DNA of 64,000 nt from a virus (Duplodnaviria; Caudoviricetes). Below are positions 4,201 through 57,572 of the stretch, piece by piece. The position numbers and the translations under genes are program-made. The stretch's first letter is position 1. Each line of letters starts with the position of its first letter. The stretch lies in IMG/VR virus record IMGVR_UViG_3300026085_000098, positions 9,707 to 73,706 of that record; one strand, given 5' to 3'. The notes under the pieces are model-generated. The model was not told where the DNA came from and searched no databases. It saw nothing but the letters and a program-made list of their open reading frames with translations.

Positions 4201-4239
4201 GGGCAAGAAGTAGTTGTTCTTGCCCACGTTTTATTTATA
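4201..4239 (-). promoter_or_regulatory. Late promoter TATAAATA (4232-4239) followed by a 5'-UTR hairpin for the porin mRNA
   Basis: Perfect 9-bp stem gggcaagaa/ttcttgccc (4201-4225) between promoter and SD. Confidence 0.7.
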
Positions 4240-6129: not shown

Positions 6130-6448
6130 ACTATATGTTATGCCACTTTCTGTTGCTAGGCTGTGGCCGCCCCCTTAATTATGCTGCTAGAGCGTAACCA
6201 GAAGGTGCAAAGTTTGAATTTGCATCTAGTTTTTTTGACCAATAACGCAGTCATCCGGTTAACTCCACTTCACTTTCACACCTGTCGATCCCATGTCAGG
6301 CCCATCATAAACGCACTTTCTTGGCTCGGTCAGGAGTTGTGTGCTGCACCACACCTATTATGCAGATAGGCGAAATGCGTTTATGGTGGACCTGCCCGGA
6401 ATTGAACCGGGGTCCAGTATGTGTCCACGTTGCTTCAACGCTAACAGT
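6130..6448 (-). ncRNA. ssrA: Circularly permuted two-piece tmRNA; tag peptide (A)ANSNFAPSGYALAA
   Basis: Order on the minus strand: acceptor piece with T-arm CCCCGG-TTCAATT-CCGGG and CAGGTCC-A-CCA end (3' end at 6384); intervening segment bounded by the inverted repeat cataaacgca/tgcgtttatg; coding piece starting GGGCCTGACATGGGATCGAC at 6303; G3:U70 in the acceptor stem; tag ORF 6223-6179; late promoter TATAAATA at 6450-6457. Outer ends are approximate. Confidence 0.95.
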
Positions 6449-7018
6449 TTATTTATAAAGTCTATATTTTATAGTGTCAACCACTCTTTTACTTAAAACA
6501 ATTTCGTAATGGTTTCTATCAATTGTTGTGTATTCTACATCGCCTCTGCAAGTCATTGAATGTCGTGTAACAATACCATCATTCTTTCCTGATAACCAAG
6601 GAACATCACCTGTTGTAGTAACAATTTGTAACCAAGGAACTTTTATTGAAAGTTTTCTACTGCCTTTTATAAACGCACTATGTGGCGTAATGTCTCTAAA
6701 TAATTGGTATCCTGGATTAAGTAAACCTCCCCAAGTTGCTATCTCGCTACCATTAAACGGTGTAGCAAGGCTAACTACACCTTTGATGTCAAATAAATTT
6801 TGTAAGTACGTTGCATATACTCCGCCTAAACTATGTGCAATGATACTAAAAGGCCCCTTGTTTTCCTTTAGGATTTCTTTCATTTCATCTAGATTTTCTT
6901 CAGCAGTTGTTTCTTTATCATAATTCAGAAAAATAGGATCTTTTGCTTTTATTTCTTTTTGAATATAAGCAAAACTTCTTTCGCTTGCTGTAGCGCCATG
7001 TATGAAAATTGTTTTCAT
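6449..7018 (-). CDS. Alpha/beta hydrolase (lipase/esterase-like)
   Basis: FIHG oxyanion motif, AHSLGG nucleophile elbow, LATPFNG, NDGIV, NHYEI; late promoter at 7023-7030. Confidence 0.85.
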   Translation of the reverse strand: MKTIFIHGATASERSFAYIQKEIKAKDPIFLNYDKETTAEENLDEMKEILKENKGPFSIIAHSLGGVYATYLQNLFDIKGVVSLATPFNGSEIATWGGLLNPGYQLFRDITPHSAFIKGSRKLSIKVPWLQIVTTTGDVPWLSGKNDGIVTRHSMTCRGDVEYTTIDRNHYEIVLSKRVVDTIKYRLYK

Positions 7019-7025
7019 ATATTAT

Positions 7026-7526
7026 TTATAGTGGGTTTTTGCAAACCATTATTATCAGTGTGCGTCTTTGCTCTATACAATCAATAGCATCAAAGTCATG
7101 CCAAGTTTGCTCACCTCTAAAGAATGCTGTGCCACCGTTTTGTATATAAGGGTTTTGATGAGAAAACTCTGTTTTATTTTTATAGATTTTTGTACCTGTG
7201 CCTGTGTCTGCTAAACCTAAAACAAAAGTAAAAATCTTTTTAGGATTGTCTGTATGTACTTTATTGTACTGCCAGTCTATATCAATATTATCAAATTGTA
7301 ATTCTAAGTAGTGTCTAGAAAAATCATACTTCAATATATCAGACAAATCTAGCATAGGTTCTTCTAGCAAATCATGCCATTTACCTTCCTTAAAAGGATG
7401 CATTGTACGTGAATCATAACGTGGTAAGTTTTTACTATATTCGTTAAACTCTTTAAACACATCTTGAGGAAGAAAATCATGTATTAGATATTGTTTCCAA
7501 GGGTGTTCTATTTTCTCAACTATCAT
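7026..7526 (-). CDS. 2OG-Fe(II) oxygenase-like protein
   Basis: VHTD, GTGT, TWHDF, RRTL. Confidence 0.65.
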   Translation of the reverse strand: MIVEKIEHPWKQYLIHDFLPQDVFKEFNEYSKNLPRYDSRTMHPFKEGKWHDLLEEPMLDLSDILKYDFSRHYLELQFDNIDIDWQYNKVHTDNPKKIFTFVLGLADTGTGTKIYKNKTEFSHQNPYIQNGGTAFFRGEQTWHDFDAIDCIEQRRTLIIMVCKNPL

Positions 7527-8062
7527 ACAAGAACACTTTCATCTCGCCATTGATCATTTACATAATTTACAATAACACTGATCCTATCATCTTGTAAAGG
7601 TTCTAGTTTGTGAGGTTCATTCCCTGTGTTTACAAAAAACCATCCACTACCTCTTTTGGCTCTTGTTTTTATATTGTTGAAAGTTGTGCTTGTTTCTTGG
7701 TAATCTAGATATAATTGCAATGAAAAAGTTTTGGCATCATCGTCACAATGATCTTCTAACCAACTACCTTTAAGATCTTTACAAAGTTCAATTCTCAATC
7801 TATCAGTTGTGTAATCTTTACCTACAGTTTCGCCAAACATTCTTCTTGTTTCGTACGAATCAAAAAACTCAATTAAGTCCCAAAAACAAGGATGTTCATA
7901 GTGATGCATCCAATGCCTAACATTTTTATCTGTTCGTTTACCATTCAATGATCCCCAGGAAAGCACTTCAGACTCGTTTATAATGCATCTTATAAGTTCA
8001 TCGCTTATAAGTTTTTCAAACTGCCAAATTGTGTAACCTACATTAACTGTGTTTAATATCAA
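7523..8062 (-). CDS. 2OG-Fe(II) oxygenase-like protein
   Basis: DHCD, FSLQLYL, EPHKL, RISVIVNY. Confidence 0.7.
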   Translation of the reverse strand: MILNTVNVGYTIWQFEKLISDELIRCIINESEVLSWGSLNGKRTDKNVRHWMHHYEHPCFWDLIEFFDSYETRRMFGETVGKDYTTDRLRIELCKDLKGSWLEDHCDDDAKTFSLQLYLDYQETSTTFNNIKTRAKRGSGWFFVNTGNEPHKLEPLQDDRISVIVNYVNDQWRDESVLV

Positions 8063-11689: not shown

Positions 11690-12331
11690 CTATACTTTAA
11701 TTATCTCTAAAGGTTTGGATTGTTTCAGGAGAGAGTAAAATTTTTTCTTATGAACTGGGTGTTGCCTTGGATTTAATCTTTTATTGGGATGTCCTATCCC
11801 AATTGCCATCATAGGATCGAATTTTTTATTAGTATATCCATATAATAAATCTGCTAATGCATTTTGATCTAAACATATACAGTTACCTGTTCTTAGACCA
11901 ATTCTATTTGCTTCAAAGTTTATAATACCTGTAATTGTTCCTATAGCGATGTTTTTGAATTGTTCATATTCTTCTTCATCATCCCAATACTTGTGCATAT
12001 CTGTAGGAGTATTTTGGCATAGGATTGCAACACATGGAGCATCTACTTGAGGATTACCTAAAAATACTGCTTTGGGATCAGTTTGTTCTTTAAAAAACTC
12101 ATTATACTCTCTTACATGTCTTTGTTCATCAGGGTGACCTGATAGGCTATAAATATTTTTTATTAAATCTTTATTTTTAGTAAAGATCACTTTTACAAAA
12201 TTATAGCCATCTTTCATGTTTGCCCATTTTATACACTCTGCAAGATAATCTATAAGATGATCTGAAACTTCAGCATCATCGAAATTACGATGACAGATTT
12301 TCATATGTCTAATGTTTTCTAAATCACGCAT
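11690..12331 (-). CDS. Nitroreductase-family flavoprotein
   Basis: N-terminal RHMKICHRNFDDAEVSDHLIDYL, A.RIGLRTGNCIC, MAIGIGHP fit the nitroreductase FMN-binding layout. Confidence 0.65.
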   Translation of the reverse strand: MRDLENIRHMKICHRNFDDAEVSDHLIDYLAECIKWANMKDGYNFVKVIFTKNKDLIKNIYSLSGHPDEQRHVREYNEFFKEQTDPKAVFLGNPQVDAPCVAILCQNTPTDMHKYWDDEEEYEQFKNIAIGTITGIINFEANRIGLRTGNCICLDQNALADLLYGYTNKKFDPMMAIGIGHPNKRLNPRQHPVHKKKFYSLLKQSKPLEIIKV

Positions 12332-53786: not shown

Positions 53787-54031
53787 TATTCGTATCCTCT
53801 CGGGTCTTTTACTCTAATATCTGCAGGATGCTTAGGCTTATTAGGGCCGCCGCCAGCTAATGATGTTATTCTATCTACATTGGCGACAATTTCATTAGGA
53901 GTATTACTATACATTCCTTGTGAAGGATTGTCAATCATATCTTGAACCATGTGCTTACCGTCTTCTTGGTCCATCTTTTCTTGGGCATCAATATAATCAA
54001 TTAGGCCACGTAATATATCTTGAATTCGCAT
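53786..54031 (-). CDS. Small putative internal virion protein
   Basis: MRIQDIL; GGPNKPKHPADIR; SD AGGAG; late promoter at 54049-54056. Confidence 0.65.
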   Translation of the reverse strand: MRIQDILRGLIDYIDAQEKMDQEDGKHMVQDMIDNPSQGMYSNTPNEIVANVDRITSLAGGGPNKPKHPADIRVKDPRGYE

Positions 54032-54066
54032 TTATAACTCCTATACACTATTTAGTTAAATACGGT

Positions 54067-54264
54067 ATGTTCAAACTTATAAAAAAATGGTTGCATGAAT
54101 ATAACAAATATCAAAAAGACATGAGAGACATGGGATATTTTTATCATATACACGGGTGGGGCGTATACTCACACTTTGATAGAGAAACCTATGAAGCATG
54201 GCTAAGTAAAATGCATGATAGACACAAAACCATTCAAACAACTTCTAAGCACACTAAAGAGTGA
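54067..54264 (+). CDS. Hypothetical protein
   Basis: Likely start MFKL at 54067, 4 nt after GTTAAATA. Confidence 0.55.
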
Positions 54265-55414
54265 AGGAAAATACAGAGTTTTCAACGACATTGTTAGAGA
54301 ACGAGGAGATTTTCCTAAGTCTATCTGGTATGGCCCTTACAGTATAAAAAATATTATAAACTGGTGTTCCAACGATTACCTCGGTATGGGCCAACACAAA
54401 GTTGTGATAGATGCAATGCACACAGCATTGGACCAGACAGGTGCTGGCTCAGGTGGTACTCGCAACATAGGCGGTACATCTCACTATCACGTCGCACTAG
54501 AACATGAACTTGCCCGTTTGCATAGCAAACCCCAGGCTCTATTGTTTTCTAGTGCTTATGTCGCAAATGAATGGAGTCTAATCTCCCTAAGCAAGATCGT
54601 TCCCAACATTGTGTTTTTGAGTGACTCAAAGAATCACGCAAGCCTCATACAGGGTATCCGACACAGTGGTGCGCCTAAATCAATTTGGACCCACAACGAT
54701 ATGGACGAGTTAGAATCTCAACTGGCGAAAATTTCCACGCTGAACCAAACACCTTGTATAGTGTTCGAATCCGTGTATAGCATGGACGGTGACGTATCGC
54801 CTGTTGAGACTATTTGCGATCTAGCAGACAAGTACGGTGCTATTACCTACATTGATGAAGTCCATGCGGTAGGATTGTATGGAGAGCATGGAGCAGGTTA
54901 TCTAGAACTATTAGGTATTCAAGATAGGGTAGACATCGTAAATGGAACACTTGGAAAAGCATTTGGCGTTACAGGCGGGTACATAGCGGCTGATTCATTA
55001 GTCATCGATGCAATTAGATCAGTGGCAAGCGGGTTTATCTTTACCACTTCGCTAAGTCCTGTCCTTTGTGCTGGTGCGTTGGCCAGTATCAAATATCTAT
55101 CGGACCACAACGAACTTCGTCTTCGGCATCAGGCTCAGGCAAACAAATTGAAACAAGAATTTGCTAAGGTCGGAGTAGAAGTACACGATAAAGCCTGTAC
55201 TCACATCGTACCTGTAATGGTTAGAGATGCTTTAAAATGTAAAGGTTTGAGTGATAGGTTGTTAGATGACTATGGAATATATGTACAACCTATCAACTAC
55301 CCAACTGTTGCTGTAGGAGAAGAGCGTCTTCGCTTTGCTCCTACACCTTTACATAACGATTCAATGATATTAGACTGTGTAGATGCAGTCAGAAAGGTTA
55401 TAGATGAATATTAA
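54215..55414 (+). CDS. hemA: 5-aminolevulinate synthase (PLP-dependent, Shemin C4 pathway)
   Basis: [56 protein letters not shown] (PLP Lys), [23 protein letters not shown]. Confidence 0.96.
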
Positions 55415-55820
55415 AAAGATGTTTTGGGCTGGTGCCGGCTTTACATTACTAGGGATTGCATATTTAGGAGTAATACTTCCGGGTCTACCCTGGAGTATCT
55501 TTGTAGTTATGTCGGCCTACTGTTTTGCAAAGTCTAGCGATCGTATGCACAATTGGCTTTACAGCCATAAGTTGTTCGGTCCGTTTTTAACAAACTGGGC
55601 AACAAAGAAAGTGTTTCCTCTTAAACTAAAATATTTTATGATTGCTACTATGGCAACCACAGTTGCGTTCACTTATTTTGCAACTGGCAATGAAAAAGCT
55701 GCACTATGGACAGGAGGTTTTATGATCCTTGTTGCTGTTTACTGTTGGAGATATCCTAGCACTACAGAAGAATACGACAGACGAAAGGCTGCTGGTGAAA
55801 AGATTGCGTGGTTCAAATGA
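55404..55820 (+). CDS. ybaN: YbaN/DUF454 inner membrane protein
   Basis: [32 protein letters not shown]. Confidence 0.9.
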
Positions 55821-55975
55821 GTGGCGAGTTTGAAGTATGGTCGGTGCAGGAACTTTTCGAATCTGAACTAGAGGGTATTGAAGAAATGCTAGAAGAAACA
55901 GACGACGAAACCATAAAGCTAATGCTCGAACAAACCAAGTTATACCTAGAGGCAAGGTTGAATGGATCTCTCTAG
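55817..55975 (+). CDS. 52-aa highly acidic protein
   Basis: Hand-translated [52 protein letters not shown]; ATGA overlap with ybaN. Not in ORF track. Confidence 0.7.
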   Translation: MSGEFEVWSVQELFESELEGIEEMLEETDDETIKLMLEQTKLYLEARLNGSL

Positions 55976-56609
55976 ATTAAAAGCACAAGTACAGGCTTAC
56001 GACGACAAATACAATAGCACCCATTGGGTATATCAAGGTACATTAAACGACATTAGTATCTTTGACCCTTTTTCCCACACAGACCTTGCCGGTATGGATT
56101 TTTTAGAAGACTGGCAAAAAGGAACATTGTTGCGTAAAATGGTCAAGCAATATAAATTATGGCTAGATCTAAAACAAGGAAAAACATTCTTTGGTAATTG
56201 TGTAATAGTCTTATGGGATGACATGCCTTTTCTAGCACCTGGTGGTAATAGAGCAATGTTTGCAAGTCAGTACCCTGATATGCCTTGCCTATACATCCTG
56301 CAGGATTACACAGGACTAGCACAAAATTTTAATGCACCTTTAAAACGTTTGGTAGATAGTGAATTTCCTATACATGACAATTTTAAAACACCTATAGTCA
56401 ACACAAAAACAAGGAACGGAGAACAGAGAATCTTGCTAGACTGGGAGCAATTTGATTGGCAAGAAGAACTTTATGAGGAAGCAGTAACTATGAGTTACAA
56501 TCCACAAGTGATTGAATATGAAGATAGATTTGAGTGTGAAGTTGAAGGTGTTGCGTTTCTTACTTTTTGGAAACTACCAGGAGGTTTAGTACGTCCTGAA
56601 TTTGGTTGA
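55962..56609 (+). CDS. Hypothetical protein
   Basis: ORF track; LAPGGNRAMF motif. Confidence 0.6.
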   Translation: MDLSRLKAQVQAYDDKYNSTHWVYQGTLNDISIFDPFSHTDLAGMDFLEDWQKGTLLRKMVKQYKLWLDLKQGKTFFGNCVIVLWDDMPFLAPGGNRAMFASQYPDMPCLYILQDYTGLAQNFNAPLKRLVDSEFPIHDNFKTPIVNTKTRNGEQRILLDWEQFDWQEELYEEAVTMSYNPQVIEYEDRFECEVEGVAFLTFWKLPGGLVRPEFG

Positions 56610-57035: not shown

Positions 57036-57545
57036 TTATAGCCATTGCTGCCAACTAGGGTGCTTAACTTGAAAATCTAACTGTTTGCGTTTTGATACTA
57101 GTTCATAGTAATCGGGTTCATATGGTTTGATTTTTGGTTTCATGATTGTTTTATTGCTCTTTTGAGTGTTACATTTTTGACATGCTGCAACAATATTTTC
57201 CCATTTTGTTCTGCCTCCTTTTGAAAGAGGTATTACGTGATCTAGTGTGAGATCCTTGCGAGCAAATTGATTAGAACAGTATTGACAATGGTAAAGATCA
57301 CGTATGTATAAATTTGTTTTACTAAACCTAGGCCGTCGCCGTCGCCGCATAAATTCTTTTAACATGATAACACTGGGTACACGAGTTTCCCAATTTGCAC
57401 TGCTCACAACCCAATCGTCGTACCAATCAAGCACAGTACATTTATCTAGATACATGTAGGTGATTGCTTCTTTCCACTGAATAGCGGACAAAGGTAGATA
57501 ACTCACAGGTTGTGCATCGGCGTTCAACATTAATACGTCAGACAC
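57036..57545 (-). CDS. HNH endonuclease (McrA-like)
   Basis: Likely GTG start at 57545 after AGGAG; VLMLNAD, RD..CQYC, TLDHVIP.SKGG, WENIVAAC.KCN.QK. Confidence 0.9.
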   Translation of the reverse strand: MSDVLMLNADAQPVSYLPLSAIQWKEAITYMYLDKCTVLDWYDDWVVSSANWETRVPSVIMLKEFMRRRRRPRFSKTNLYIRDLYHCQYCSNQFARKDLTLDHVIPLSKGGRTKWENIVAACQKCNTQKSNKTIMKPKIKPYEPDYYELVSKRKQLDFQVKHPSWQQWL

Positions 57546-57572
57546 TGTTTTTATTCTCCTAATCAATTTTAT

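Follow-up and report, generated by a model that had tools for sequence, protein, structure and literature searches.

Phage genes for 5-aminolevulinate synthase and a DUF454 membrane protein overlap on a T4-like virus record and probably form a tetrapyrrole module

The valaS-DUF454 locus

The DNA analysed here is a stretch of 64,000 nt (hereafter the window), positions 9707-73706 of the 73.7-kb IMG/VR virus record IMGVR_UViG_3300026085_000098, for which CheckV estimates a completeness of 35%, and its subject is a pair of genes encoding a phage 5-aminolevulinate (ALA) synthase (ALAS; gene valaS) and a small protein of the DUF454 (YbaN-like) family. The window genes lie mainly on the minus strand, with the pair in a short plus-strand block between two minus-strand blocks. 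The open reading frame (ORF) of valaS, encoding 399 aa, occupies positions 54215-55414 of the plus strand, and that of the 138-aa DUF454 protein positions 55404-55820 of the same strand, both with the stop codon included. The end of the former and the start of the latter share 11 nt (ATGAATATTAA, 55404-55414, plus strand), an overlap read directly from the sequence that confirms the gene arrangement described in the original prediction, an annotation made from the DNA alone. A putative Shine-Dalgarno-like AAAGG (55393-55397, plus strand) lies within the end of valaS, 6 nt 5' of the DUF454 ATG. Stop/start overlaps or abutments of this kind are also found in relatives, in either gene order. The G+C content around the two genes (0.41) is inside the range of the window.

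Matches to PHROG families of T4-like phages in the window include ribonucleotide reductase, tail-fibre proteins and several large virion structural proteins, and for a 532-aa structural protein the nearest isolates, at 42-44% identity, are T4-like phages of Synechococcus. On this gene content the window is assigned to a T4-like virus record, and the ALAS gene is, as had been proposed, borne by a phage; a bacterial origin of the contig is ruled out by the virion genes. Outside the window the same record carries a haem oxygenase gene (hemO; PF01126, 55.2 bits; G000:C1:4202-4720, minus strand) and, directly after it, a pcyX-like bilin reductase gene (Fe_bilin_red, PF05996, 57.6 bits; G000:C1:3516-4070, minus strand; locus L002), the two together (C1:3516-4720) lying some 60 kb from valaS.

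The phage enzyme is an ALAS lacking the haem-feedback residues

The 399-aa protein scored 553.4 bits against the TIGR01821 5-aminolevulinate synthase model (cutoff 338.55) over residues 7-398, whilst the sister models remained under their own cutoffs: 320.8 versus 460 bits for KBL, 305.9 versus 426.45 for BioF and 189-232 versus 500-670 for the serine palmitoyltransferase models. Solved ALAS structures align along its full length, the best being 7x98 (residues 7-394, E 1e-129), and in this PDB search human and yeast ALAS rank after the bacterial enzymes, with KBL first appearing at 1e-60. The lysine that binds pyridoxal 5'-phosphate (PLP), K248 in Rhodobacter capsulatus numbering, is present and is invariant in 34 phage ALAS sequences. 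Because only the TIGR01821 cutoff is exceeded and placement with KBL or BioF fails, the assignment as a true ALAS, and not as either of these, stands as far as sequence can tell; such a placement was the outcome that the original prediction had named as counting against it, and its description of a full-length ALAS with PLP and substrate motifs agrees with the model score, the structural alignments and the conserved K248 and active-site blocks.

Comparison with R. capsulatus ALAS (2BWN; residues 11-389, E 1e-125) brings out both what is kept and what is missing. Both enzymes have the PLP lysine and the blocks of the glycine and succinyl-CoA sites: the PLP block GTLGKAFGV pairs with GTLAKAYGV in 2bwn, R21, N53, T82-R83-N84, H141, D214, H217 and R373 are identical in the alignment, and an ERLR block is also conserved (for residues other than K248 the active-site roles are those of the structural literature). 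The phage-carried gene differs in that the haem-feedback residue His342 of R. capsulatus is replaced by Lys341, and that no Cys occurs in the last 11 residues, where a counterpart of Cys400 would fall (the alignment ends at residue 389 and this position is extrapolated gap-free). We infer from these replacements that valaS is insensitive to haem feedback.

Relatives of valaS are encoded on 460 stretches in IMG/VR, the best 80 at 69-81% identity, and metagenomic proteins reach 97% identity. Among GenBank phage records no ALAS was found above 36% identity, the matches being KBL or BioF and mostly mislabelled bacterial records, and a megablast search with the locus gave no match, in searches that may not have covered records close to the genome of the window. 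PHROGs holds no family for either the valaS or the DUF454 protein.

Viral alaS ('valaS') has been described on marine and freshwater contigs of the pelagimyophage type, where it stands alone or joins hemO and pcyA/X in cassettes that may be complete or broken, and many of the encoded proteins are without His342 and/or Cys400 (Wegner et al., 2024, Nat Commun 15:8783; PMC11480375). The text of that study also reports that the freshwater phage homologue CB_2 vAlaS, tested alongside K250A as control, complements an ALA-auxotrophic E. coli (PMC11480375). The original prediction had suggested that the phage may escape host control of tetrapyrrole synthesis and had called for complementation of an ALA auxotroph: the former fits the absence of the His342 and Cys400 equivalents here but is an idea already in print, and the latter had already been done, for the freshwater homologue only. 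The phage-ALAS idea is thus sound, already published and experimentally backed, and the window provides one further member. Like the published genes, valaS is encoded on the contig of a T4-like myophage, has hemO and pcyX at another site of the same record, keeps the catalytic residues, is missing the His342/Cys400 site and shares the proposed role of sustaining tetrapyrrole supply during infection. It differs in that it overlaps a DUF454 gene, in a pair that recurs widely, and in that the enzyme assayed in the published work was that of freshwater phage CB_2. DUF454 and YbaN have no mention in the main text and 11 supplementary files of PMC11480375, in a search of text only, which an unnamed gene in the figures would escape; DUF454 as a partner of valaS is the part that looks new, and looks undescribed.

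The DUF454 protein

The 138-aa protein matches Pfam DUF454 (PF04304) with 97.5 bits (cutoff 35.1), its residues 5-118 covering profile positions 1-114 of 115. It has the whole domain in common with E. coli YbaN and PF04304, with the family-wide P..P turn, S45, H55, GP and K76, and is unlike E. coli YbaN in falling far under the cutoff of the NCBIfam YbaN equivalog PRK10527 (59.3 bits versus 163), in an extra conserved C-terminal tail and in an invariant H49. Conservation across the 68 rows of the alignment used for the phylogeny below extends to P26, P29, G59 and P60 (one exception), to H55 (67 of 68) and to K76 (or R). The phage clade is marked by H49 and by the tail, WRYPxSxEEYxRRxxxGxKIAWxK, the tail being missing from 8 of 10 copies linked to hemO and from 17-20 of 20 other bacterial copies; the N-terminus MNIKK..W is kept in homologues.

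An AlphaFold2 model (mean predicted local distance difference test score 89.5) has long hydrophobic helices at residues 3-24, 31-44, 73-94 and 97-115, with a pair of short helices in the loop that follows helix 2 and a further helix at the C-terminus. The model thus predicts a small polytopic membrane protein with four long hydrophobic helices, in which the conserved loop and the tail are probably on the cytoplasmic side, judging by the distribution of lysine and arginine.

We know of no function for YbaN, and literature searches gave, among the matches listed, no paper assigning one to DUF454/ybaN; the available text of a paper on the Acinetobacter baumannii hemO locus contains no mention of a DUF454 gene. 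No DUF454 protein of the phage type was found among the GenBank phage records searched, which may not include close relatives of the window genome.

DUF454 and alaS recur as a pair in phages

The neighbourhoods of the best 80 of the 460 viral relatives of valaS were inspected, many of these loci being near-copies from different samples and some ending near alaS. A DUF454 gene occurs within 4 kb in 22 of the 80 loci, 9 times just downstream, once just upstream and 12 times in convergent orientation at 0.5-3 kb. Conversely, 14 of 23 viral loci retrieved by DUF454 have alaS within 5 kb. Three loci show the order DUF454-alaS-pcyX, the reductase being confirmed by Pfam in one of them (L092). DUF454 relatives at 88-93% identity stand downstream of alaS in L089 and L090 and upstream of it in L084-L088, and the genes that flank the pair vary by lineage, including ribonucleotide reductase, sugar enzymes, tail genes and HNH genes. 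In the window itself the pair is followed by an acidic 55-aa ORF that overlaps the DUF454 stop (55808-55975, plus strand; no Pfam match) and by a 215-aa ORF, the last gene of the plus-strand block (55962-56609, plus strand; no Pfam or PHROG match), neither of which has a homologue among 111 related loci. The alaS/DUF454 pair behaves as a unit, because its flanks differ whilst the other small genes of the block have no counterpart in those loci.

Two further arrangements were seen, each on one viral contig. In locus L103 (4113-6128) two DUF454 genes flank alaS with overlapping ends (DUF454-alaS-DUF454). In locus L106 a serine hydroxymethyltransferase gene (6721-7878; PF00464, 491.6 bits) follows alaS at a distance of 2.9 kb, with DUF454 1.3 kb away from it; serine hydroxymethyltransferase is a source of glycine, the substrate of ALAS.

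HNH endonuclease genes adjoin the pair or sit within about 1 kb of it in several lineages (L004:5825-6343, L040:6076-6588, L070:7173-7682, L080:8409-8924, L090:5958-6470 and L096:6384-6890), including the window, where one lies at 57036-57566 on the minus strand (PF14279, PF01844, phrog_16726). These might be homing endonucleases that help the pair to move between phage genomes.

When contigs of the genome collection were searched, the single DUF454 protein as query gave no match and the alignment as query gave eight short contigs, which are assigned to metagenome-assembled genomes (MAGs) of unrelated taxa; the three of them that carry alaS-DUF454 are probable phage fragments. Contigs from four metatranscriptome libraries (four studies) cover alaS and DUF454, two of them spanning the junction, and several are near-identical to the window, with 1 difference in 151-246 bases. 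They are compatible with co-transcription of the two genes in nature.

DUF454 in bacterial genomes and phylogeny of the family

The cellular sample was one set of 301 Pseudomonadota genomes, searched with DUF454, ALAS and haem oxygenase, which were present in 121, 94 and 28 genomes respectively. DUF454 and ALAS occur together in 38 genomes, and their sole adjacency is on a short phage-like MAG contig (G001:C75, equivalent to locus L107). Of the 19 genomes with both DUF454 and hemO, 10 have a DUF454 gene and hemO on one strand and less than 300 bp apart, DUF454 being downstream in 9 of these; nine of the ten genomes hold a second DUF454 copy elsewhere. Pfam annotation of the ten loci covered a subset of ORFs, since spurious opposite-strand ORFs had displaced others. 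Among those submitted, a gene for a TonB-dependent receptor carrying an STN signalling domain stood immediately upstream in seven loci, and FecR was identified in three. These loci (L115-L124) contain a recurrent operon of FecR, TonB-dependent receptor (STN domain), haem oxygenase and DUF454. In one genome of the set (G177:C1:987521-997102) a 1038-aa open frame contains a DUF454 domain, and a partial ALAS-like match (model positions 2-293) lies 8.4 kb away.

Published data touch on the family at two points. The available text of a preprint places DUF454 and haem oxygenase among the domains that co-occur with genes of the type 11 secretion system (T11SS; bioRxiv 10.1101/2024.09.26.615229), and according to that of an Avibacterium transcriptome study a DUF454 gene is induced by iron restriction (PMC7970244).

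The copy on the phage-like contig shares 57% identity with the window DUF454 protein, those elsewhere in the 301 genomes no more than 41% (residues 3-96). A tree was built from 38 phage-type rows (24 viral loci including the window protein, eight genome-collection contigs and six metagenomic proteins of unknown origin) and 30 cellular rows (ten hemO-linked copies, the nine second copies and eleven further ones), the cellular rows being taken from some 135 matches. All phage-type rows fall in one clade with 100/100 support and a long branch.

The upstream region and other features of the window

The original prediction also placed a late-type promoter upstream of alaS, and this was not borne out: neither the motif scans nor a sigma-70 scan gave anything above chance. 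The exact T4-type late promoter motif TATAAATA is absent from the plus strand of the upstream region (54032-54214), where the sole near match is TATAAAAA (54078-54085, plus strand, one mismatch), 130 nt before the ATG. Since one-mismatch sites occur across the window at chance frequency (150 found, 149 expected), TATAAAAA is not counted as a promoter and is no evidence for one. On the opposite strand, TATAAATG at 54029-54036 is the ribosome-site/start region of the divergent gene. The sigma-70-like scan was likewise at chance, with 11 found and 10.9 expected. Nine exact TATAAATA sites occur in the window, at 4232, 6450, 7023, 30742, 57570, 58337 and 60203 on the minus strand and at 12148 and 62260 on the plus strand, which is not above chance (6.4 expected); several of them stand 5-65 nt upstream of minus-strand ORF starts.

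A possible 65-aa ORF of uncertain status (54067-54264, plus strand; ATG start read from the sequence) overlaps the start of alaS by 50 nt. Its longer GTG form has no Pfam or PHROG match, and it shows 37% identity to two records, each retrieved twice (L005/L089 and L006/L090), in which the similar sequence lies about 400 nt upstream of alaS.

A permuted (two-piece) transfer-messenger RNA (tmRNA) of the alphaproteobacterial type is encoded at 6139-6484 on the minus strand of the window, with the tag peptide ANSNFAPSGYALAA predicted by ARAGORN and Rfam scores of 107.3 bits (RF04321) and 76.6 bits (RF01849, alpha_tmRNA). The tmRNA type hints at an alphaproteobacterial host.

A proposed phage module for making and managing tetrapyrroles

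The explanation that we favour, and consider likely as a whole, is that alaS and DUF454 form a translationally coupled two-gene auxiliary metabolic module in which a feedback-free valaS is joined to a membrane protein that handles tetrapyrroles. As a PLP enzyme, valaS would condense glycine and succinyl-CoA to ALA, the committed tetrapyrrole precursor, and because the haem-feedback residues are absent ALA production would continue in the infected cell whatever the level of host haem. With hemO and the pcyX-type reductase on the same record, the virus would control the haem route at its start (ALA) as well as at its end (haem to bilin). The DUF454 protein would then bind, pass on or transport haem or another tetrapyrrole related to it at the inner membrane, so that the additional flux due to valaS could be used or removed; its conserved residues (including the family-wide H55 in a basic loop) and the phage tail are predicted to lie outside the long helices, probably in the cytoplasm. 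A tetrapyrrole role is suggested for DUF454 because three genes of the haem pathway are found linked to it, two of them in phages (alaS and pcyX) and one in bacteria (hemO). The pair resembles the haem-catabolic auxiliary metabolic genes of cyanophages and pelagiphages (hemO, pebS, pcyA and pcyX) as phage genes that rewire tetrapyrrole metabolism, the more so with hemO and a bilin reductase on this record too. It differs in that those genes take effect after haem whilst valaS catalyses the first committed step, and in that DUF454 is no pathway enzyme.

A more specific proposal, which we put forward tentatively as a possibility, is that DUF454/YbaN proteins in general are haem- or tetrapyrrole-handling membrane proteins. 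The phage clade would be the fixed partner of a feedback-free ALAS in a mobile 'make it and manage it' module, the other clades would be paired with haem oxygenase in bacterial haem-uptake operons, and the invariant loop histidine, probably cytoplasmic, would be the ligand-binding residue.

Several observations weigh against a tetrapyrrole role for DUF454 as the partner of valaS. No DUF454 gene lies within 4 kb in 58 of the 80 inspected valaS loci (some of them cut short) and DUF454 is not an obligate partner, whilst nine of the 23 viral loci with DUF454 are without alaS in the vicinity and five such DUF454 records, 19-68% complete, encode no ALAS at all. The counts are also inflated by relatedness, there being fewer independent lineages than loci since many are near-copies, and the contigs of the RNA libraries may derive from carried-over DNA and hold no strand or end information. 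In bacteria, cellular DUF454 lies within 5 kb of ALAS in 0 of 37 genomes (nearest 8.4, 13.3 and 43 kb). As to the protein itself, a Foldseek search of the model against the PDB gave no meaningful match (best E 2), a wide VIA-align search matched helical hairpins only (best Z 7.4) with no solved fold like that of the model, and H49 is invariant in the phage clade only. The hemO-linked copies, moreover, form two clades separate from that of the phages. The phage protein resembles these copies in belonging to the same Pfam family and in being encoded directly beside the gene of a haem-pathway enzyme, on the same strand, and is unlike them in that their partners are haem oxygenase and a TonB-dependent receptor, and that they fall in separate clades without the phage tail and H49. 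Since the phage clade is separate, the link with hemO carries over at the level of the family only.

These points give most room to an alternative in which valaS is a working auxiliary metabolic gene and DUF454 a hitch-hiker in a variable accessory island, perhaps moved together with alaS by the HNH endonucleases whose genes recur beside the pair, with an unrelated function such as a generic membrane or exclusion role. The loci in which either gene occurs without the other fit such an island, those with DUF454 and without alaS having it amid NADAR, ClpP, porin, AhpC, Hsp20 and endolysin genes, as does the distinctness of the phage clade from the hemO-linked bacterial proteins. A hitch-hiker would not, however, readily account for a pair that is kept in both gene orders and in unrelated neighbourhoods, often with overlapping stop and start, for the phage with DUF454 on both sides of alaS and the three with DUF454-alaS-pcyX, for the conservation of DUF454 with alaS when the other genes of the plus-strand block are not conserved, or for the independent tie of the family to haem oxygenase in bacteria, and we regard this alternative as unlikely.

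Alternatively, DUF454 could be a membrane anchor or regulator that binds valaS through its cytoplasmic loop and C-terminal tail, and that places or modulates ALA synthesis without handling tetrapyrroles itself. The translational coupling of the two genes, the conservation of the tail in the phage clade and its absence from most bacterial copies, and the adjacency of bacterial family members to another soluble haem enzyme, HemO, would all suit an anchor, but the phage protein is also encoded on the records without any ALAS and, in the organisms studied so far, ALAS is not known to require a membrane partner; we find this reading distinctly improbable. The suggestion that the 399-aa protein is another alpha-oxoamine synthase (KBL, BioF or serine palmitoyltransferase) or an inactive relic can draw on the fold common to all these families and on strong Pfam PF00155 and NCBIfam matches, but with a single curated cutoff exceeded, PDB matches to ALAS some 70 orders of magnitude better than to KBL, an intact reading frame, and K248 and the active-site blocks invariant in the 34 phage homologues, it is exceedingly improbable and, on sequence grounds, stands refuted.

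A coupled module of feedback-free valaS and tetrapyrrole-handling DUF454 thus remains the explanation that we favour. Two independent lines of neighbourhood evidence point DUF454/YbaN to haem, namely its proximity in phages to valaS and pcyX and in bacteria to hemO and TonB-dependent receptor genes, and the function of this family is now directly testable by simple genetics and spectroscopy. For the phages themselves, the pairing suggests that manipulation of haem flux during infection may include a membrane step that current models of valaS omit.

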